Assembly: GCA_000002435.2 (NCBI GenBank)
Contig: CM018793.1
DNA: 64,000 bases
Reading direction: 5' to 3' (one strand)
DNA from: Giardia intestinalis
Lineage: Eukaryota
Position 1 is the first letter of the stretch; the number at the start of each line of letters is the position of its first letter. A program made the translations under genes and the position numbers. Positions 5,260 through 30,896 of this stretch are shown in pieces. The notes under the pieces are model-generated. The model was not told the DNA's origin and made no database searches. It saw only the letters and a list, made by a program, of their open reading frames with translations.

Positions 5260-5694
5260 TCACGCTACTCCTTTCATCCACATGTAATTTACTAGAATAT
5301 CAGGTTCTCTGCTAAGCGTGGTGACTGCCTGTTCTCGTGCGAGGACCTCAAGAAGAAGATTACGCAGGCGAGTGTACTGGTTTTTCAGTCGTCTGTAGCG
5401 GTCTTCTAGATCAAACGTAGACCTCTTCAGAGGAACAGATGCCGATCTCCCCACCCCCGTATGGTGCACGAGTCTTTGGTGTGCAGTGTAAGGCCGTTCT
5501 CTGAAGGAGGTGGAGCATATCAGACGCAAATTGTTCTCTGCGTCACATCTCCGGGCCTGATCAACATAGGTATCAAGCACAGGTCCAACTACTTGACTAA
5601 CAAGTGCATAAAGTGCACTGGAAGATGTGTGCACAGGAAAAGACAAGGAAGGAAGAAGCCCACAGTCAGACGCATCTCCCTCTGCTCCAATCAT
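5260..5694 (-). CDS. hypothetical small protein (144 aa) with C-terminal coiled coil
   Basis: ATG (minus, 5692-5694) preceded by the canonical Giardia-type initiator TTAAAAAATG; GC3-rich ORF; no homology recognised. Confidence 0.4.
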   Translation of the reverse strand: MIGAEGDASDCGLLPSLSFPVHTSSSALYALVSQVVGPVLDTYVDQARRCDAENNLRLICSTSFRERPYTAHQRLVHHTGVGRSASVPLKRSTFDLEDRYRRLKNQYTRLRNLLLEVLAREQAVTTLSREPDILVNYMWMKGVA

Positions 5695-25344: not shown

Positions 25345-27084
25345 CTAGAACTCAAAGTCGCCAAATTCATCCTCCTGTATATTTTCATAGTTAAACCCGG
25401 CAATTGGCTGAGTGTCGTTGCTAATGGTGACTCCGAGGCTTAGATCACCGTAGTTATCAAGAGTATAGTCGCCCTGCGAAGGCTGGGCTTGCTGCGCGGG
25501 CTTAGTGCGCTCCAGCACGATTCCAGAGACAAAGTCGCCACCGGCCATGAACTCCGAGTTGAGACTGGGATGTGGTCTCGTTGAGATTGCGTCATCCGTA
25601 GCAGCGTGGATGCTGCTGATGTCTTTAATATCGTTTAGCTCTGATGCGGCATTGGTTAAAATGCTTGTTGTTCCCTCTGGCATGCCAATCAGCCGTGCTG
25701 CCGCTTTCCCCGCCACCAGGGCCGAGTCCACAGCAGCGCTTTCTCCCATTGCACTGAGGTTGCTGTCGCCAGTCAAGATAGAGTCGGCACTCGGCCCAGG
25801 CTTCTGAACCATTGAACCAGGACCAAACCCAGAGTGAATCGTGCTATCTGCGGGTGTGATGGTGCTGTCGTACGCCTGCATATCTCGGCCTACTGCGTCC
25901 AGCAAGTTTAGTGTGGCTTGGCGGGTTGGTCCGCCCGTTGATTCGGTGATCGCGCTGCTTAACGACTCAGTATAGCCAGAGCCCGCCTTACTGAGGGTAT
26001 CGTCCTGCTGGAGTTTTGCTAACGACTTTATCCCTCTACTAGAAGAGCTGCCAGATGCAGATACATCGCTGTCCTCAACTAGAAGGGCGCTTTGAAGATA
26101 TGCATGACTGCTGTTGTCATACATACACGGATCAGGAACAACGAGCTCGGTCACAAGATGCTCGCTGTGTGCAGCTGACTCTGCATTCTCCTGCGCCTTC
26201 GTAGGAGACATAGTCAGATCTCTATTAAGCTTCCCCTGGATCTCAGCGGCTCTACGGGCATGCGCAGCTGTGTCGGGCGAAAGCATGGAATTTCGCGCCA
26301 AACTTCTATCTGCATATTTGAACGAGAAGTCAGTCATCCTGCTGGGGCTTTGCCTACTGCTTGAGGTTTCGTCTGGACCAAGGGAAACCCCCGGGGCCAT
26401 GCTGGCGTTCGAGATGGTGAGATTGGCTTCCTGAGACTGATCATCTCCAAATGGATTATCTTGCTTGAGAGTGAACGCAGACCCCTTTACCGGCTGAGTC
26501 GGGATAATTTTCTCACAGTCATCGTGGCGCCTAGGTGAGGCGGTGTTTCGGGCGGGGCTCGTGTACTCAGAAATAGGCTCCATGCTCATATCGGAGAATG
26601 CAGCACCAATATCGGAATGGCCTGGAGAGTGCGTGCCGGGAGAAGACATAAATTCATAACTGTCCACCTCTGGCAAATCACTAAACGGTCTTCCAGATTC
26701 TAATTCAAGGACCTTCAAGGTGTTCACCATTCCTTTGTCTGTGAGCCACTTCACCAGATATGCAAGGACCTTGAGATCCTCGTCACAAATAAAGTTCGCT
26801 GCCTGTAGCAGGGGATCTACCTCGTTCAGTTCCCGGTGATGAAGGATGCCCCAAACCTGTGCGTACATGAAGGCCTTAACCTTAGCTAGCACCCCAGCAG
26901 TGTCTAGCGCTGCAAAAACGCCGCGCTTAAGATCCGGGGACTCATCAAGACTCATTGGCTTTTTGGTCCTTGGGTTTTTGATTTCTTCAGGTTCTTCGGT
27001 TCCTTCGCTTAATGAGAGTGAGTGATCAACCCATCTGGTATGCGCGGTATTACAAGAGAACATGCAGAGAGAAATTCGCTCCAT
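25345..27084 (-). CDS. Ser-rich hypothetical protein (start 27084 or, more likely, internal ATG 26955)
   Basis: ATG at 27084 would overlap the upstream Rad51-like CDS by 76 bp; the ATG at 26953-26955 (MSLDESPDLKRG...) lies 54 bp after that gene's stop; ordered N-terminal domain then a long S/T/P-rich region. Confidence 0.6.
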   Translation of the reverse strand: MERISLCMFSCNTAHTRWVDHSLSLSEGTEEPEEIKNPRTKKPMSLDESPDLKRGVFAALDTAGVLAKVKAFMYAQVWGILHHRELNEVDPLLQAANFICDEDLKVLAYLVKWLTDKGMVNTLKVLELESGRPFSDLPEVDSYEFMSSPGTHSPGHSDIGAAFSDMSMEPISEYTSPARNTASPRRHDDCEKIIPTQPVKGSAFTLKQDNPFGDDQSQEANLTISNASMAPGVSLGPDETSSSRQSPSRMTDFSFKYADRSLARNSMLSPDTAAHARRAAEIQGKLNRDLTMSPTKAQENAESAAHSEHLVTELVVPDPCMYDNSSHAYLQSALLVEDSDVSASGSSSSRGIKSLAKLQQDDTLSKAGSGYTESLSSAITESTGGPTRQATLNLLDAVGRDMQAYDSTITPADSTIHSGFGPGSMVQKPGPSADSILTGDSNLSAMGESAAVDSALVAGKAAARLIGMPEGTTSILTNAASELNDIKDISSIHAATDDAISTRPHPSLNSEFMAGGDFVSGIVLERTKPAQQAQPSQGDYTLDNYGDLSLGVTISNDTQPIAGFNYENIQEDEFGDFEF

Positions 27085-28307
27085 AGAAGATGCAAGATTG
27101 TCTCCTTCTGGGTCAAGGCCAAGACGATCCTGGTAGAAACGTGAGAGCCCCAGCTGATCCCCAGGCTGGGTGTAACCAGTCTATTAGAGGACATTACCAC
27201 GTCGCGTGAAAACGTGCGGTCACTTTTGTAAGATATTTGCACGGTTTCTGGGAAGAGTAGAGAAGTGAACGGTACCACCATAGACTCCGAAATGAGAGTG
27301 GACTGAGAATCGTTAGGGTCACCATGGATTAGTAGCTGATTGCTAACTCTATCTTCTCCACAATCACTGACACCCGGGATTACTGGCGTATAGACATAGA
27401 GCTGATCAGTTGGAAGAGTGTTAGTAGGAAGCCGGGGAAGAGCATTGGGAATAGATTGCCCCGGGAACTGATGTCTTCTAGAATGCTGCTGTGCAGATGA
27501 GGCTAATTGAGGAGTTGCAATGTAATCTCCCACGTGATTAGTCAACAGCACGGCGAGGTTCTTCAAACACGCAATGTTGAGCAAAGCCTGTCCCATCTCA
27601 TACCCCGGATTATTGAGCTGAGACTCACTGGAGTTTGGCTTAGTGTAGAGAATGCGCAGGAAGCCAATACTGTCTACGCAGATAAGCTTCAATGCAGGAC
27701 ACTGTCTGCACAACTCCCAGACTTGGCCCGATGATTCAAAGAGCTTTACAAGGCCAGTAGGGGATAGTTCACGCAAGAAGTACAGTCTCTTCAGAACCAT
27801 CGTTGTATTCACTTGAGTGTCAGTGAGAAAGGGGGAAAGATAGGTCAGGAGATCAACGAGGGTGCTGAGGACGTCTTCTACCGATGTTACTATTAAGGCT
27901 ATGTAATGCTCCGTCGTCAAGAGCACCACGGAGATGACGTACAGCAGTATGCGCGTCTTACCCGTGCCAGATTCCCCTGCAATCTCAGTTATGTGCTGCT
28001 CTCGTATAACGTTTGCCAAGACCAGATCAAATGGTGACATAGTCTTTAGGTGCTTAAAGTTGGGAATAAACAAACTAGACTCCGGCCTTAACCCTGATCC
28101 TGCCGAGGCGAACAATCTAACAATGCCGCACGCATCACAGATTTTAGACTTAATTTCTTCAATCTCTCGGACTGATTTATTCTGTTTGACGGCCAATTCA
28201 TAGCTGTCAGAATTTAGAAAGTTTGCAATTGTGAGACCACCAAGCTTTGTCAAGAAAGATGCGCGTAGGGCCTCGCCAAAATCTAATTCATATTTGTGCC
28301 TATTCAT
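27009..28307 (-). CDS. RecA/Rad51-family paralog-like P-loop ATPase (XRCC3/Rad51C-like architecture)
   Basis: N-terminal HhH-like segment, ITEIAGESGTGKT Walker A, LICVDSIGF Walker B, LLTNHV (cf. INQVT) strand; ORF-track start 28322 is TTG, real ATG 28305-28307 behind TTATTAAAATG. Confidence 0.7.
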   Translation of the reverse strand: MNRHKYELDFGEALRASFLTKLGGLTIANFLNSDSYELAVKQNKSVREIEEIKSKICDACGIVRLFASAGSGLRPESSLFIPNFKHLKTMSPFDLVLANVIREQHITEIAGESGTGKTRILLYVISVVLLTTEHYIALIVTSVEDVLSTLVDLLTYLSPFLTDTQVNTTMVLKRLYFLRELSPTGLVKLFESSGQVWELCRQCPALKLICVDSIGFLRILYTKPNSSESQLNNPGYEMGQALLNIACLKNLAVLLTNHVGDYIATPQLASSAQQHSRRHQFPGQSIPNALPRLPTNTLPTDQLYVYTPVIPGVSDCGEDRVSNQLLIHGDPNDSQSTLISESMVVPFTSLLFPETVQISYKSDRTFSRDVVMSSNRLVTPSLGISWGSHVSTRIVLALTQKETILHLLWSEFLSACSLVIPRIPDGLITHSH

Positions 28308-28377
28308 TTTAATAAATGACAAGCTTTGTGTCGTCCTTTTAAGAATTAAAAAACACCCTCCCAGCGCTTACCCAGAT

Positions 28378-29505
28378 ATGGTAAACTTTGAGGATTGCTC
28401 GTTCAGCAATCCAGTCACAGTTTCGGCCAAGAAGAATACCTACCTACAAGATAAAGCCAAGATAGAGCTGTCCCTTTCTTGTAACTCTGACGGCACCCTG
28501 ACTCTAGAATCCAGGGGCAGGCAGCGAACCAAAATTTCTAAGGTAGTTGCAAGCAAGGTGGGATTCTTGAGGGCTGAAGGAAGTGACGCCAGCGGCGTCT
28601 TGCAGATTGCCACCCACTTGAAGATTATATTCACGGACAACAAAATCGTGGATAGCGGCTACGACCTCCTGTCCATTAAGTTTAATTTTGCAGGCTTCAC
28701 ACCAGACATTAATAACATGAAATACTTACTGAGCGTTCTGAAGGACTTGCCAACGGACAAATCTACTTTGCCGGGGAACCGGCAATCCACTTCCTCAGAC
28801 ATGACGACAGCCGCTGTAAACTCTGCGGTCACTAGATTGCCCTTGGCACAAGATCAGTCCATCTACACCTTCTTGATGGAGAGAAATGTGCAATGTGAAA
28901 CGCTCCCTTCTTGCACCATTATGGCTGCAGACGATGAGTCGGCCGGCTACGATGAGAGTTGTGAGATGAACGCACTGTATGTCGAGCTGGCCAATTATGA
29001 GCCGGTGCGATTGAGTGGAGCCAATTCCTCACAAAACGAAGGCTATCTCTGTGCAGATCCTGACCCAGATCTCAGTAACATAGGCTTTAGACTCATATTT
29101 CCCAAGGCTAGCATAGTAGAATGCGCACAAGGAGGTGACAGAGGTTCACTCACAAAAGCCGACAGTGATGAAGGAGAGAATCCTTGGCTTAAGCTGGTAA
29201 GACTCGCAGAGAATACTTCCTTCAAGGGAGCTCCAGAGTTAGTATCGGAGTCTGGCCCTATCTACCCTGATCTGGAGCAGGAGCCTAGCTCTCAAGAAGA
29301 AATGCCCGTTGAAGATGCATCCTTATCGACCTCCTTGCCCGTTAGTAATATGGTGAGGGCTAGCAAACCAAACACTCAAGCCACCTTCAGGCAAGAGTCT
29401 ATCAAGTCAACTGATGGTAACAATAGTGAGCAGCAGGAACCTGACAGAGCCTTGGTGTCCTACTTCTCGAGTGGTAAGAACTTACAATCCTTTTATAAAC
29501 ATTAG
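28378..29505 (+). CDS. hypothetical protein (about 375 aa)
   Basis: ORF-track start 28231 is GTG; first ATG 28378 (MVNFEDCSF...) lies 70 bp from the divergent Rad51-like ATG with AT-rich spacer. Confidence 0.5.
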   Translation: MVNFEDCSFSNPVTVSAKKNTYLQDKAKIELSLSCNSDGTLTLESRGRQRTKISKVVASKVGFLRAEGSDASGVLQIATHLKIIFTDNKIVDSGYDLLSIKFNFAGFTPDINNMKYLLSVLKDLPTDKSTLPGNRQSTSSDMTTAAVNSAVTRLPLAQDQSIYTFLMERNVQCETLPSCTIMAADDESAGYDESCEMNALYVELANYEPVRLSGANSSQNEGYLCADPDPDLSNIGFRLIFPKASIVECAQGGDRGSLTKADSDEGENPWLKLVRLAENTSFKGAPELVSESGPIYPDLEQEPSSQEEMPVEDASLSTSLPVSNMVRASKPNTQATFRQESIKSTDGNNSEQQEPDRALVSYFSSGKNLQSFYKH

Positions 29506-29532: not shown

Positions 29533-30084
29533 TTATTCTGTCTTGCTCGTTAACATATCCTGGACCACTTGGCACAGCGGCTCAAAATCGCGCTCGACGT
29601 TTTCTCCAACAAGATCTCCGTCCACATTATAATACTCGCCTATACTCTTCTCTAGGAGTAAATTCTCCTTGTGCTTGACCGTATACAGTCCTGTCCGGGG
29701 GCAGAGGCGTCCGGAAATTCGCACCGTCCGACCCTTCGCATCAGTGAGTACGAAGATGGTGCTGTCCTTAGCCTCCAGAACCTTGTGGATTAGATAGAGA
29801 GACCAAAACAGAAGTAGACCAACGACAATCGATATGCGGCGAGTCTCTAATGGCACTTTCAAGACCGTCGGAATTCCAATAAATACGCCGGCTGCCAGGA
29901 CCGAAGACCAGCCAAAGGCCAGGGCTGGAACTCTAGGATCGTACTTGGAACGAATATTATGGCGTGCAAAGAGCTCCACAATTGCAGAAGTTAAAACACG
30001 GACAACTTCAAGATTGTTATCGAGGTTGACGTGTGTCCGGTCGACGCTCAATGTGGACTTGCAGAACGAGGGCTTGGGCGGCAT
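29533..30084 (-). CDS. two-TM membrane protein resembling signal peptidase complex subunit 2 (SPCS2/Spc25)
   Basis: Cytosolic N-terminus, two adjacent TM helices, then KDSTIFVLTDAKG...YTVK...IGEYYNVDGDLV matching the SPCS2 C-terminal pattern KSIFLV..KD..YTLK..FFD..G.LV; real ATG 30082-30084 behind GAAACTGAAAATG (ORF-track start is TTG). Confidence 0.45.
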   Translation of the reverse strand: MPPKPSFCKSTLSVDRTHVNLDNNLEVVRVLTSAIVELFARHNIRSKYDPRVPALAFGWSSVLAAGVFIGIPTVLKVPLETRRISIVVGLLLFWSLYLIHKVLEAKDSTIFVLTDAKGRTVRISGRLCPRTGLYTVKHKENLLLEKSIGEYYNVDGDLVGENVERDFEPLCQVVQDMLTSKTE

Positions 30085-30170: not shown

Positions 30171-30896
30171 ATGCCCCGCTCGAAGAGGTCTAAGACAGTG
30201 GTCCTTGCAAAAGTGGAGAAGAAAACACGAGAGGCCAAGCAGGAGATTATCAAGCAGATTAGGGAGGCATTCGACACATACGACACCGTCTATGTGATTG
30301 ACTCTCATAACATGACTAGCTCGTCATGGCAGCAGCTTCGCACGAGCATGAAGGGGTATGCGCGTATTTTTATGGGTAAGAATCAGCTTATGCGATATGC
30401 CCTCGGTAAAACTGAGGAGGAGAGCTATCGGACTAAGACGTGGCAGCTGGGACGCCTCCTCAAAGGCATGACCGGCCTTCTCTTCACTAGCGCGCCGGAG
30501 GAGAAGGTGCGGTCAGCCCTTGCGTCTGTTGCGCGGCCTTGTTTGGCCAGGGGCGGGGACGTTGCCACCAAAACGATCGTAATCCCACAGGGCCCTCTGG
30601 ATAGAGACAAGTATTCATTTGCGTTAGAGCCAGAACTGCGTAAGCTTGGACTACCAACGAGTCTGCAGAACACAGTCATCCATGTCCTCTGCGACCATGT
30701 GCTGTGCAAGGAGGGCGATGTTTTGACATCTGCTCAGGCAAGACTTCTGAAGCATTTCGATCATGTGTTGTCAGAGTCTAGTGTCACGCTCCGGGGCGTC
30801 TGGCACAAGGAAACAGAGGATCTTGACGTCCTAGACCCCAACTGTCTCTACCTTCTGGACACGGCTCCTGCAGAAGAGGATGAGCAGAGCGATTGA
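30171..30896 (+). CDS. MRT4: mRNA turnover protein 4 / ribosome assembly factor Mrt4 (P0/uL10-like)
   Basis: MPRSKRSKTVVLAKVEKKTRE...DTVYVIDSHNM...GKNQLM..ALG...PELRKLGLPT...CKEGDVLTSAQARLLKHF aligns along the whole length with the Mrt4 family (MPKSKRDK...); upstream in-frame ATG at 30141 possible. Confidence 0.85.
   Translation: MPRSKRSKTVVLAKVEKKTREAKQEIIKQIREAFDTYDTVYVIDSHNMTSSSWQQLRTSMKGYARIFMGKNQLMRYALGKTEEESYRTKTWQLGRLLKGMTGLLFTSAPEEKVRSALASVARPCLARGGDVATKTIVIPQGPLDRDKYSFALEPELRKLGLPTSLQNTVIHVLCDHVLCKEGDVLTSAQARLLKHFDHVLSESSVTLRGVWHKETEDLDVLDPNCLYLLDTAPAEEDEQSD

Follow-up and report, generated by a model that had tools for sequence, protein, structure and literature searches.

The minus strand of the window, as we call the whole 64,000-nucleotide stretch of Giardia intestinalis DNA analysed here, carries an unbroken open reading frame from an ATG at 28307 to a stop at 27009–27011 (ORF listing). 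The product is a 100% match to GL50803_0015939 / XP_037902302.1 of G. intestinalis WB, annotated in databases as a "hypothetical protein". Its first methionine is unchanged in an alignment of five Giardia lineages, and orthologs are found in four further Giardia lineages, at 64–87% identity, and in G. muris; the UniRef labels for these orthologs are Rad51-like. The gene and its neighbours are arranged as follows:

25345–26955, minus strand: downstream gene from its conserved start (MSLDESPDLKRGVF...), 536 aa, a neighbour and not part of the paralog
26956–27008, minus strand: intergenic spacer of 53 nt, from the five-lineage DNA alignment
27009–28307, minus strand: Rad51-paralog CDS, 432 aa plus a TAA stop at 27009–27011, from the ORF listing and the sequence
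27082–27084, minus strand: ATG 27084, within the Leu-Trp codons (CTA TGG) of the conserved LLWSEF of the paralog
28308–28377, no strand: divergent intergenic region of 70 bp between the paralog and the opposite-strand gene, from the sequence and gene calls on orthologous contigs
28378–29505, strand opposite to the paralog: divergently placed neighbour, 375 aa

An AT-rich TTATTAAA lies directly 5′ of the paralog ATG in the sequence and, from general knowledge of Giardia promoters, may act as an initiator. A bacterial promoter and terminator scan of the locus was set aside as irrelevant, the host being a eukaryote.

Two starts had been considered for the downstream gene in the initial annotation, ATG 27084 and ATG 26955, the first of which would make it overlap the paralog. 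The paralog CDS does contain ATG 27084, 76 nt in from its 3′ end (27084 − 27009 + 1), but the five-lineage comparison and the GenBank annotation of P15, where the 536-aa gene begins at the conserved ATG, both point to ATG 26955. This codon and the N-terminus MSL[DE]ESPDLKRGVF are conserved in all five lineages, as is the A-rich CCAAAAAGCCA element just ahead of it. A Pfam search with the 536-aa protein gave no match and no recognisable domain. The spacer, ~21 nt in P15 and L009, contains in this sequence a 32-nt insertion unseen in the other four lineages of the DNA alignment. It is only because of this insertion, whose length is not divisible by three, that ATG 27084 is in frame with the downstream gene in this assemblage-A sequence and that a 43-codon extension, unique to this lineage, arises. 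At the position of ATG 27084, P15, GS and L009 have no open frame with the downstream gene; in-frame stops fall 15–27 nt upstream of the conserved ATG in these three of the four other lineages, with no in-frame ATG upstream of it. The genes might nevertheless truly overlap, with translation of the downstream gene from ATG 27084 yielding a 579-aa product: the frame is open from this point in the window, and prokaryote-style gene callers on assemblage-A contigs pick an upstream start (572 aa). The confinement of the extension to one lineage, the stops in the three others and the conservation of the shorter N-terminus with its A-rich element make this very improbable. Furthermore, the triplet itself reads simply as conserved Leu-Trp codons of the paralog, and synonymous divergence in the C-terminal region of the paralog is not depressed (pS 0.57 vs P15). 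On this comparative sequence evidence, ATG 27084 is not a start codon and the apparent overlap is an artefact of ORF extension.

The initial annotation read the ORF at 27009–28307 as a Rad51-paralog-like ATPase, and this is borne out by sequence profiles, by an AlphaFold model and by fold searches. Searched alone, the Giardia sequence scores 12.7 bits with Pfam Rad51 (PF08423), below the 22-bit gathering cut-off, and its sub-threshold Pfam matches (AAA_25, 1.6e-4; KaiC, 0.06; Rad51, 0.076) cover residues ~91–134 only, which could suit an unrelated P-loop ATPase of the KaiC, DnaB or AAA_25-like kind that resembles Rad51 around Walker A only. However, the PDB matches obtained with the single sequence (Rad57, 5.5e-6; XRCC3, 5.3e-5) and with profiles are specific to the Rad51 family and span residues 19–275 and 365–417. 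A profile of five Giardia sequences finds Rad57 at 6.4e-9 and XRCC3 at 8.4e-7, and a ten-sequence fornicate profile finds RAD51C at 6e-21, Rad57 at 7e-20, RAD51B at 4.5e-18 and XRCC3 at 1.6e-16, while the NCBIfam RadA model matches residues 19–259 (2.4e-7). Five of ten clade members match Pfam Rad51, the best being the Dysnectes relative (3.3e-15), and through them the Giardia protein belongs to the Rad51 superfamily by transitive homology. The AF2 model was unusable with an alignment of five Giardia orthologs (pLDDT 33.5) and usable with 23 sequences (pLDDT 72, pTM 0.71); in it, four N-terminal helices form a domain ahead of a RecA core. Queried with the alignment of 23 sequences, a word-indexed homolog search gave no more than 8 matches, its candidate list probably being swamped by low-complexity words. 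The best Foldseek matches are RAD51-paralog, RadA, RAD51 and DMC1 chains (E 1e-12 to 1e-10), with KaiC/DnaB-type folds scoring clearly below them; the structure comparison gives no separation among paralog classes. With a Rad51-type N-domain in the AF2 model as well, the reading as an unrelated P-loop ATPase is effectively refuted, and the KaiC/DnaB-like families that the initial annotation had named as the alternative give way to Rad51.

According to the same profiles, model and fold searches, a linker joins a four-helix N-domain to an ATPase core of RecA type, with these features in order from the N-terminus:

28128–28280, minus strand: N-terminal four-helix domain, Rad51/RadA-type HhH-like, residues 10–60
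28038–28127, minus strand: interdomain linker, variable and of low model confidence, residues 61–90
27519–28037, minus strand: RecA-type ATPase core, first part, residues 91–263
27954–27977, minus strand: Walker A / P-loop GESGTGKT, residues 111–118, read from the sequence
27669–27692, minus strand: Walker B strand LKLICVDS, residues 206–213
27525–27554, minus strand: strand AVLLTNHVGD, the equivalent of RAD51 'VVITNQV', residues 252–261, from alignments
27204–27518, minus strand: lineage-specific insertion at the L2-loop position, residues 264–368, ~105 aa
27012–27203, minus strand: C-terminal part of the ATPase core, including DVVMSSNRLVTPSLGISWGSHVSTRIVL and the LLWSEF strand, residues 369–432

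The HhH-like N-domain, the Walker B strand and the 'INQVT-like' strand (LLTNHVGD, residues 254–261) of the initial annotation are thus all located. The helices of the N-domain lie at 10–22, 27–32, 35–41 and 46–60, with pLDDT 75–87 across residues 21–60. Profile alignment places the region collinearly with RadA (residues 19–259 vs 21–251), and collinear alignments also span the N-domains of RAD51B, RAD51C, RAD51D and Rad57. As judged from the AF2 model, these alignments and full-length Foldseek matches, a predicted N-domain of HhH type is present, at residues 10–60, and its absence, which would have told against the initial annotation, can be set aside. The linker (pLDDT < 50 at residues 66–80) is the most variable region, with dN/dS up to 0.5–0.8 against distant lineages, and holds an LFxPxFK stretch conserved within Giardia. 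FASA (residues 66–69) was dismissed as an FxxA-type polymerisation motif, being unconserved even among assemblages.

The RecA-fold core combines a Walker A of the form GxxxxGK[ST] with a Walker B of the form hhhhD. GESGTGKT had been called divergent, which it is not: it is a canonical, exact match to the Walker A consensus. Across 23 homologs, G111, G116, K117 and T118 vary little or not at all, and in Walker B D212 is invariant and S213 nearly so; a strand is predicted at 206–212. With both motifs intact, the protein most likely binds ATP. Ser142 stands in the alignment where 'DTEG' normally supplies the catalytic Glu, and an acidic residue is found two positions on (TSVED instead of TEG); owing to this displacement, ATP hydrolysis may be weak. 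In the NHV strand, N257 is invariant, and residue 258, usually Gln, is His in G. intestinalis but Gln in G. muris; NHV is present in some XRCC3 and RAD51C sequences too. The C-terminal part of the core (pLDDT 81–89) matches Rad57 383–407 and XRCC3 267–292, and the motif of its DVVMSSNRLVTPSLGISWGSHVSTRIVL region is of XRCC3/Rad57 type.

The insertion at the L2 position holds a conserved QFPGQSIPxxLPRLP, kept in G. muris and in homologs P0036 and P0037, and is missing from RAD51C and most XRCC3 sequences. Its dN/dS is 0.15 and most of it has low pLDDT. A Pfam search with the insertion alone gave no meaningful match; the M-factor and Rpr2 matches seen when the insertion or the N-domain was searched alone are due to chance. 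Judged by alignment, this conserved diplomonad insertion of ~105 aa takes the place, in the paralog, of the DNA-binding loop L2 found in true recombinases; for this reason the protein would not itself be expected to carry out strand exchange. A third, highly divergent Rad51/Dmc1-like recombinase forming DNA filaments of its own would have the N-domain and ATPase architecture common to RAD51, DMC1 and RadA, and fold matches to these proteins nearly equal those to the paralogs. Nevertheless, the DMC1 equivalog (TIGR02238, 15.7 vs a cut-off of 447.7) and RadA (PRK04301, 30.3 vs 259) models fall far short, RAD51 and DMC1 rank under the paralogs in every sequence search, the insertion is unrelated to recombinase L2 and the catalytic Glu position is unconserved. 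We give a third recombinase very little chance, and agree with the initial annotation that the protein is of paralog rather than Dmc1 type.

The gene and its family were previously on record and so are not new: Salas-Leiva et al. (2021; PMC8516963, Supplementary Data 2) list GL50803_15939, GL50581_554 and GMRT_14514 in the Rad51C row of their inventory, which rests on HMM searches and phylogeny. The description "little-characterised" is apt in that our literature search found no functional study of GL50803_0015939, the identifier being absent from main texts and present in supplementary tables only, but overlooks this listing and the UniRef labels.

Which subfamily does the paralog resemble most? 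The Giardia protein scores 98 bits with the XRCC3 HMM, 90 with Rad57 and 58 with RAD51C (152, 103 and 74 for the Dysnectes protein), and for every clade member the RAD51C HMM lies ~40 bits under the XRCC3 HMM. The RAD51C P-loop G.PG.GK[ST] occurs in 113/118 RAD51C sequences and the RAD51C motif P.LG[DE].W, also written P-[ASTC]-L-G-[DE]-x-W, in 104/118; neither is found in any of nine fornicate proteins (GESGTGKT and PSLGISW in Giardia), and the metamonad (oxymonad) RAD51C carries both. The signature P.LG[LIMFYH].[WF] is present in all nine fornicate proteins and in 34 of 36 XRCC3/Rad57 reference sequences, although these were taken from the best matches of the Giardia profile and so carry an ascertainment bias. 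The XRCC3 'SGR...P.LG' motif is found in 14/20 XRCC3 and 7/9 fornicate sequences. The GE-x3-GK[ST] P-loop (32/36 XRCC3/Rad57-type and 8/9 fornicate sequences) is ancestral and weakly diagnostic, because human RAD51 has it too. In neighbour-joining (NJ) trees, built on simple distances with human RAD51 as the single outgroup, the fornicate clade joins XRCC3/Rad57 in 86–96% of bootstraps and RAD51C in 2–7%; support for the former is 193/200, 88–96/100 with other distances and 173/200 after removal of both motif regions.

In the reverse test, the ten-sequence fornicate profile gives 78.5 bits for human RAD51C, 74.9 for Rad57 and 53–64 for XRCC3. We dropped the ranking of PDB profile scores as a subfamily test, the order of classes having flipped between the five-sequence and ten-sequence profiles, and the hhalign scores (XRCC3 255, RAD51C 197) are not comparable, the profiles being unequal in depth and N-domain coverage. 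The top rank of human RAD51C among PDB chains in that test would nonetheless fit a Giardia RAD51C ortholog, the leftover of a CX3 or BCDX2-type complex whose partners were lost, as would the published label and the best-scoring family-named relative outside the fornicate clade, Monocercomonoides RAD51C (E 2.2e-7). We consider this unlikely, given the lack of both near-universal RAD51C signatures in 9/9 fornicate sequences, yet not in oxymonad RAD51C, the shortfall of the RAD51C HMM across the clade and the low NJ support for RAD51C even without the motif columns. With the caveats above, the paralog appears closer to XRCC3/Rad57 than to RAD51C by HMM score, by signature motif and in the NJ trees, a placement that contradicts the published Rad51C label.

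The paralog is under purifying selection, with a dN/dS of ~0.09 vs P15. In public RNA-seq data (PMC8700996 Table S1), its log2 CPM is 4.5–4.8 in trophozoites, 7.3–8.6 in cysts and 4.65–4.86 after excystation, a 6–18-fold rise in cysts that is paralleled by the course of Dmc1A (GL50803_13104) and that, so far as we found, has gone unremarked in earlier literature. The ORF is a genuine Giardia gene, conserved and induced in cysts, whose product is an accessory, non-recombinase protein of the Rad51 family. Fornicata lack Rad51A and BCDX2 and have two Dmc1 genes, and the Giardia inventory lists no second Rad51 paralog (PMC8516963, Supplementary Data 2).

From its family membership and co-expression with Dmc1A, we infer that the protein most likely binds ATP and serves Dmc1 filaments as a mediator or end-cap. 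It would dock on the recombinase filament, which in Giardia would be that of Dmc1, through a Rad51-like protomer interface and help to nucleate, stabilise or cap it, as other Rad51 paralogs do; the need for it would peak in the cyst, when its transcript rises alongside that of Dmc1A. Taken as a whole, it is probable that this is the sole recognisable non-recombinase Rad51-family member in Giardia, XRCC3/Rad57-like and a putative Dmc1-filament mediator, beside a neighbour that does not overlap it. Known Rad51 paralogs act as heterodimers or larger complexes. More tentatively, and with some doubt on our part, Giardia may keep a single paralog that is of XRCC3/Rad57 and not RAD51C type and that is partnerless, acting as a homo-oligomer or by pairing directly with Dmc1; it would chaperone or cap filaments of Dmc1 instead of Rad51, mostly in the cyst, with QFPGQxxPxxLPxLP of the insertion as a lineage-specific interaction surface. 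If true, such a paralog together with Dmc1 would make a minimal paralog-recombinase system.

Double-strand breaks are repaired in Giardia despite the lack of Rad51, in whose place Dmc1A and Dmc1B are used, and of most accessory factors for recombination. Nuclear genetic exchange ('diplomixis') has been proposed for the cyst, where the parasite may exchange DNA between its nuclei. A single paralog whose transcript rises in cysts alongside that of Dmc1A is an obvious candidate for the mediator that Dmc1 filament assembly would otherwise lack and, as a simple system, lets one ask what a paralog can do by itself. The value of the present analysis is incremental: it allows a better name than "hypothetical protein", gives reason to revisit the Rad51C label of the literature, advises against carrying the apparent gene overlap forward and draws attention to the cyst induction.

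Among known systems, Giardia Dmc1A and Dmc1B and archaeal RadA share superfamily and domain order with the paralog, and Dmc1A is co-induced with it in cysts. The paralog is far more divergent than these true recombinases, with ~15% identity in structural alignments; it falls short of the equivalog models by hundreds of bits, and the L2 loop is unconserved. RAD51C (human 8faz_C; Alvinella 8gja_A) has the same N-domain and core architecture, but the Giardia protein lacks its G.PG.GKT P-loop and PALG[DE]SW motif. S. cerevisiae Rad57, of the Rad55-Rad57 mediator (PDB 9q2c_B), is the best PDB match of both the single sequence and the Giardia profile; N-domain and core are collinear, both proteins have the NxVGD and PxLG[LI]xW motifs, and Rad57 has an insertion of ~105 aa at the identical L2 position (Rad57 gap 278–382, Giardia gap 263–376), although sequence similarity between the two insertions is undetectable. 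Rad57 differs in lacking the XRCC3-type SGR motif (0/16) and in needing Rad55, for which the published inventory has no Giardia counterpart (PMC8516963). XRCC3 of animals and plants (PDB 8gja_B, 9omy_X) shares with the paralog the two-domain architecture, the GE..xGKT Walker A and a '[MV][ST]SG[RK]xVxP[AS]LG[LI]xW' motif preceding the last core strands; its HMM gives the top score (98 bits) and the NJ trees group the two, although human XRCC3 reaches just 53 bits with the fornicate profile. Unlike XRCC3, the Giardia protein has the 105-aa insertion at the L2 position, TSVED for TEG and His for Gln in NQV. XRCC3 pairs with RAD51C in the CX3 complex, whereas the Giardia inventory holds no RAD51C beside the paralog (PMC8516963), and the client of XRCC3 is RAD51, whereas that of the Giardia paralog would be Dmc1.

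The Rad51-paralog gene is intact in the window, according to both the ORF listing and the sequence, and lies among the following neighbours, the last two with coordinates converted from orthologous contigs:

25345–26955, minus strand: downstream gene, 536 amino acids, rich in Ser, Thr and Asp, no Pfam match
27009–28307, minus strand: the paralog, GL50803_0015939 (GL50803_15939), from the ATG at 28307 to the TAA at 27009–27011, 432 amino acids
28378–29505, plus strand: divergent gene, 375 amino acids, no Pfam match, ATG at 28378 by gene calls on orthologous contigs
29533–30084, minus strand: 183 amino acids, orthologs weakly matched by the Pfam family SPC25 (signal peptidase complex subunit 2)
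30171–30896, plus strand: ribosomal L10/P0-type gene (PF00466, PF17777)

The product is identical at every residue to a ‘hypothetical protein’ of G. intestinalis WB (XP_037902302.1), which marks the window as assemblage A. The ORF listing begins at a TTG 15 nt further upstream; the first methionine of MNRHKYELDF, which is the annotated start, is invariant in an alignment of five Giardia lineages. The orthologs of P15 (assemblage E) and GS (assemblage B) share 87% and 74% identity with the protein, those of two lineages known from read-archive assemblies only share 70% and 64%, and a profile recovered the G. muris ortholog (E 1.7e-91). The gene is flanked by the same neighbours on all five G. 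intestinalis-group contigs, so the locus is syntenic. Against P15, dN/dS by the Nei-Gojobori method is 0.09 overall; the core has the same value (0.09), the N-domain lies below it (0.06) and an insertion within the core above it (0.15). The paralog is thus a protein-coding gene under purifying selection over its entire length. It shares an upstream region of 70 bp (28308–28377) with the divergent gene, with TTATTAAA immediately before the paralog's ATG. A 424-amino-acid ORF starting at a GTG (28231–29505) would overlap the 5′ end of the paralog, and was rejected as an extension artefact of the divergent gene, which starts at its ATG in the gene calls on orthologous contigs.

The initial annotation had also considered, as a possible start of the downstream gene, an ATG (27084) that lies 76 nt inside the paralog. 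The position is correct, but this triplet falls within CTA TGG, the Leu-Trp codons of the paralog's conserved LLWSEF, and a five-lineage DNA alignment and frame analysis identify the ATG at 26955 as the conserved start. In every lineage this ATG is preceded by an A-rich CCAAAAA element, and the N-terminus that it opens, MSL[DE]ESPDLKRGVFAALDTAGVL (MSLDESPDLKRGVFAALDTAGVL... in the window), is strongly conserved across Giardia lineages. In P15, GS and L009 (a further Giardia contig) there is an in-frame stop 15–27 nt upstream of the conserved ATG and no upstream in-frame ATG, and GenBank annotates the P15 gene from the conserved ATG as 536 amino acids. The downstream frame is open back to 27084 because of a 32-nt insertion with GAAGGAACC/GAAGAACC-like repeats in the 53-nt spacer of this assemblage-A sequence (26956–27008). 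The DNA alignment shows this insertion in none of the four other Giardia lineages, P15 and GS among them. It yields a spurious N-terminal extension of 43 codons, part of which is taken up by gene callers on assemblage-A contigs to give 572 amino acids. The two genes do not overlap in the window. In GS the stop codon of the paralog is displaced downstream, adding NLPNQKTNEPR at the C-terminus, so that the coding sequence covers the conserved ATG by 14 nt (5274–5287 of the GS contig L006); this small overlap is genuine, but trivial and of another kind than the one proposed.

Pfam matches of the single protein sequence are all sub-threshold and confined to the surroundings of the P-loop (AAA_25 1.6e-4, KaiC 0.06, Rad51 0.076), which explains the ‘hypothetical’ label. 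The family call is unambiguous in more sensitive comparisons. A phmmer search of PDB sequences matched yeast Rad57 (5.5e-6) and XRCC3 (5.3e-5) over two collinear stretches, residues 93–262 and 375–401. A five-sequence Giardia profile improved these values to 6.4e-9 and 8.4e-7, and a ten-sequence fornicate profile reached 6e-21 for RAD51C, 7e-20 for Rad57, 4.5e-18 for RAD51B, 1.6e-16 for XRCC3 and 1e-14 for RadA. The NCBIfam RadA alignment spans residues 19–259, N-domain included. In an AlphaFold2 model based on 23 homologs (mean pLDDT 72, pTM 0.71), four N-terminal helices (10–60) are followed by a linker of low confidence and a RecA-type core, where pLDDT is around 90. The paralog is therefore a member of the Rad51 family in both sequence and fold, as first read, with the Walker motifs and N-terminal helices in place. 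It is not itself a recombinase: the Dmc1 and RadA equivalog models fall hundreds of bits short of their cut-offs.

The principal elements of the ATPase core are:

residues 111–118: Walker A, GESGTGKT
residues 206–213: Walker B, LKLICVDS
‘NQV’ strand: LLTNHVGD, with N257 invariant in the alignments
residues 264–368: insertion that separates the NHV strand from the DVVMSSNRLVTPSLGISW segment, at the position of the recombinase L2 loop

The Walker A had been described as divergent; it fits GxxxxGK[ST] exactly and so is not. The glutamine of the ‘NQV’ strand is replaced by histidine in G. intestinalis, unchanged in G. muris, and the NHV variant is seen in other paralogs too. The glutamate of the usual Rad51-family ‘DTEG’ aligns with Ser142 (TSVED, residues 141–145, window ~27873–27887). 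It is also missing in the other diplomonad-like members of the fornicate clade (G. muris, P0035 and P0037), with an acidic residue kept two positions later; variants among Giardia and diplomonad-like members of the clade are TSVED, TVIDD, TTAEN and TSLDN, whilst the free-living fornicate Dysnectes retains TEG. The change could reflect either a shifted catalytic residue or loss of hydrolysis. As judged from the sequence, the nucleotide-binding motifs are intact and the protein would be expected to bind ATP, and might hydrolyse it only weakly.

Assignment to a subfamily is less straightforward. Salas-Leiva et al. (2021; PMC8516963, Supplementary Data 2) list GL50803_15939, GL50581_554 and GMRT_14514 in their ‘Rad51C’ row, with no Giardia entry under XRCC3, XRCC2, Rad51B or Rad51D, and human RAD51C is the top PDB match of our ten-sequence profile. 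A full-library profile search returned 50 matches at E < 1e-3: a fornicate clade (Giardia species, G. muris, Dysnectes brevis and three further proteins), about 36 XRCC3- or Rad57-like proteins and about six RAD51C-like, including Monocercomonoides RAD51C. Labels of the reference sets were tested against the PDB (339 bits on human RAD51C for the RAD51C-like set; 296 and 251 bits on XRCC3 for the XRCC3-like set), and the RAD51C set was expanded with 118 sequences, mostly named. With XRCC3/Rad57 sets picked from the Giardia-profile matches, the Giardia paralog scores 98 bits for XRCC3, 90 for Rad57 and 58 for RAD51C, and the Dysnectes relative 152, 103 and 74. Two RAD51C signatures, G.PG.GK[ST] (113/118 RAD51C) and P.LG[DE].W (104/118), occur in none of nine fornicate proteins, all of which carry the XRCC3/Rad57 signature P.LG[LIMFYH].[WF] (34/36 reference sequences); the XRCC3 motif [ST][SG][GND][RK]xxxPxLG (14/20 XRCC3, 0/118 RAD51C) is present in seven. 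Neighbour-joining trees, which are distance-based and have human RAD51 (identical to PDB 5jzc_A) as single outgroup, place the fornicate clade within XRCC3/Rad57 in 193 of 200 bootstraps against four for RAD51C; support is 88–96% with another distance or the P-loop deleted, and 173/200 with both motif regions deleted. An XRCC3/Rad57 affinity is thus more probable than the published RAD51C label, though not settled. One further search match, P0038 (an ENA metagenome protein of 456 amino acids), is made up of a ~50-residue Rad51-type P-loop segment (IHWHSLDSALGGGILSGEVVELFGPSGCGKTKLGLRVSKLV...) repeated in tandem about eight times; this is either an exon in tandem repeat or an artefact of assembly or gene calling.

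We found no main text in the searchable literature that mentions the gene id, and in UniRef the orthologs from P15, GS and DHA2 go under the name ‘DNA recombination and repair protein Rad51-like C-terminal domain-containing protein’. Functional studies of homologous recombination in Giardia have dealt with Mre11, Rad50, DMC1B and Rad52, and not with the paralog. The gene was therefore already on record as an inventory entry whilst being functionally uncharacterised, so that the description ‘little-characterised’ holds for function only and there is little novelty; its induction in cysts and the new reading of its subfamily are modest additions. In Table S1 of an encystation RNA-seq map (PMC8700996), the text of which makes no mention of gene 15939, its log2 CPM is 4.5–4.8 in trophozoites, ~5.5 by 31.5 h of encystation, 8.64, 7.86 and 7.30 in three cyst replicates, and 4.65 and 4.86 after excystation. 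The transcript thus peaks in cysts. Dmc1A (GL50803_13104, labelled RAD51 in that study) follows a parallel course, from 5.4–5.8 through 7.1–7.8 to 9.3, 7.9 and 7.4 in cysts and then ~5.5.

Fornicata have two Dmc1 paralogs but neither BCDX2 nor Rad51A, the latter through loss (PMC8516963). The only clients available to the paralog in Giardia would be Dmc1B, reported to take part in the repair of DNA in trophozoites, and Dmc1A, whose induction falls in encystation and cysts; the cyst peak points to the Dmc1A phase. According to PDB entry descriptions, Rad51 paralog complexes sit on RAD51 filaments: XRCC3-RAD51C-RAD51D-XRCC2 complexes are said to cap them, and there are Rad55-Rad57-Rad51 entries. 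By analogy, the protein would bind ATP and might dock on a Dmc1 filament via its Rad51-like protomer surfaces, perhaps without a partner paralog, and act as a mediator or cap, promoting or stabilising presynaptic filaments without strand exchange of its own. Such a single paralog working for Dmc1 would, if demonstrated, be moderately interesting.

The insertion at the L2 site has no Pfam match and is mostly modelled at low confidence. Its QFPGQSIPxxLPRLP motif is kept in G. muris and in the fornicate-like proteins P0036 and P0037. These two G+C-rich relatives (539 and 702 amino acids, from JGI and Logan assemblies) share the FPGQ motif and the ‘HVLWSR’ C-terminus, and have several hundred additional low-complexity residues, rich in Ala, Gly, Pro and Arg, at the L2 site. 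Yeast Rad57 has an insertion there too, comparable in length to that of the paralog but with no detected similarity to it in sequence.
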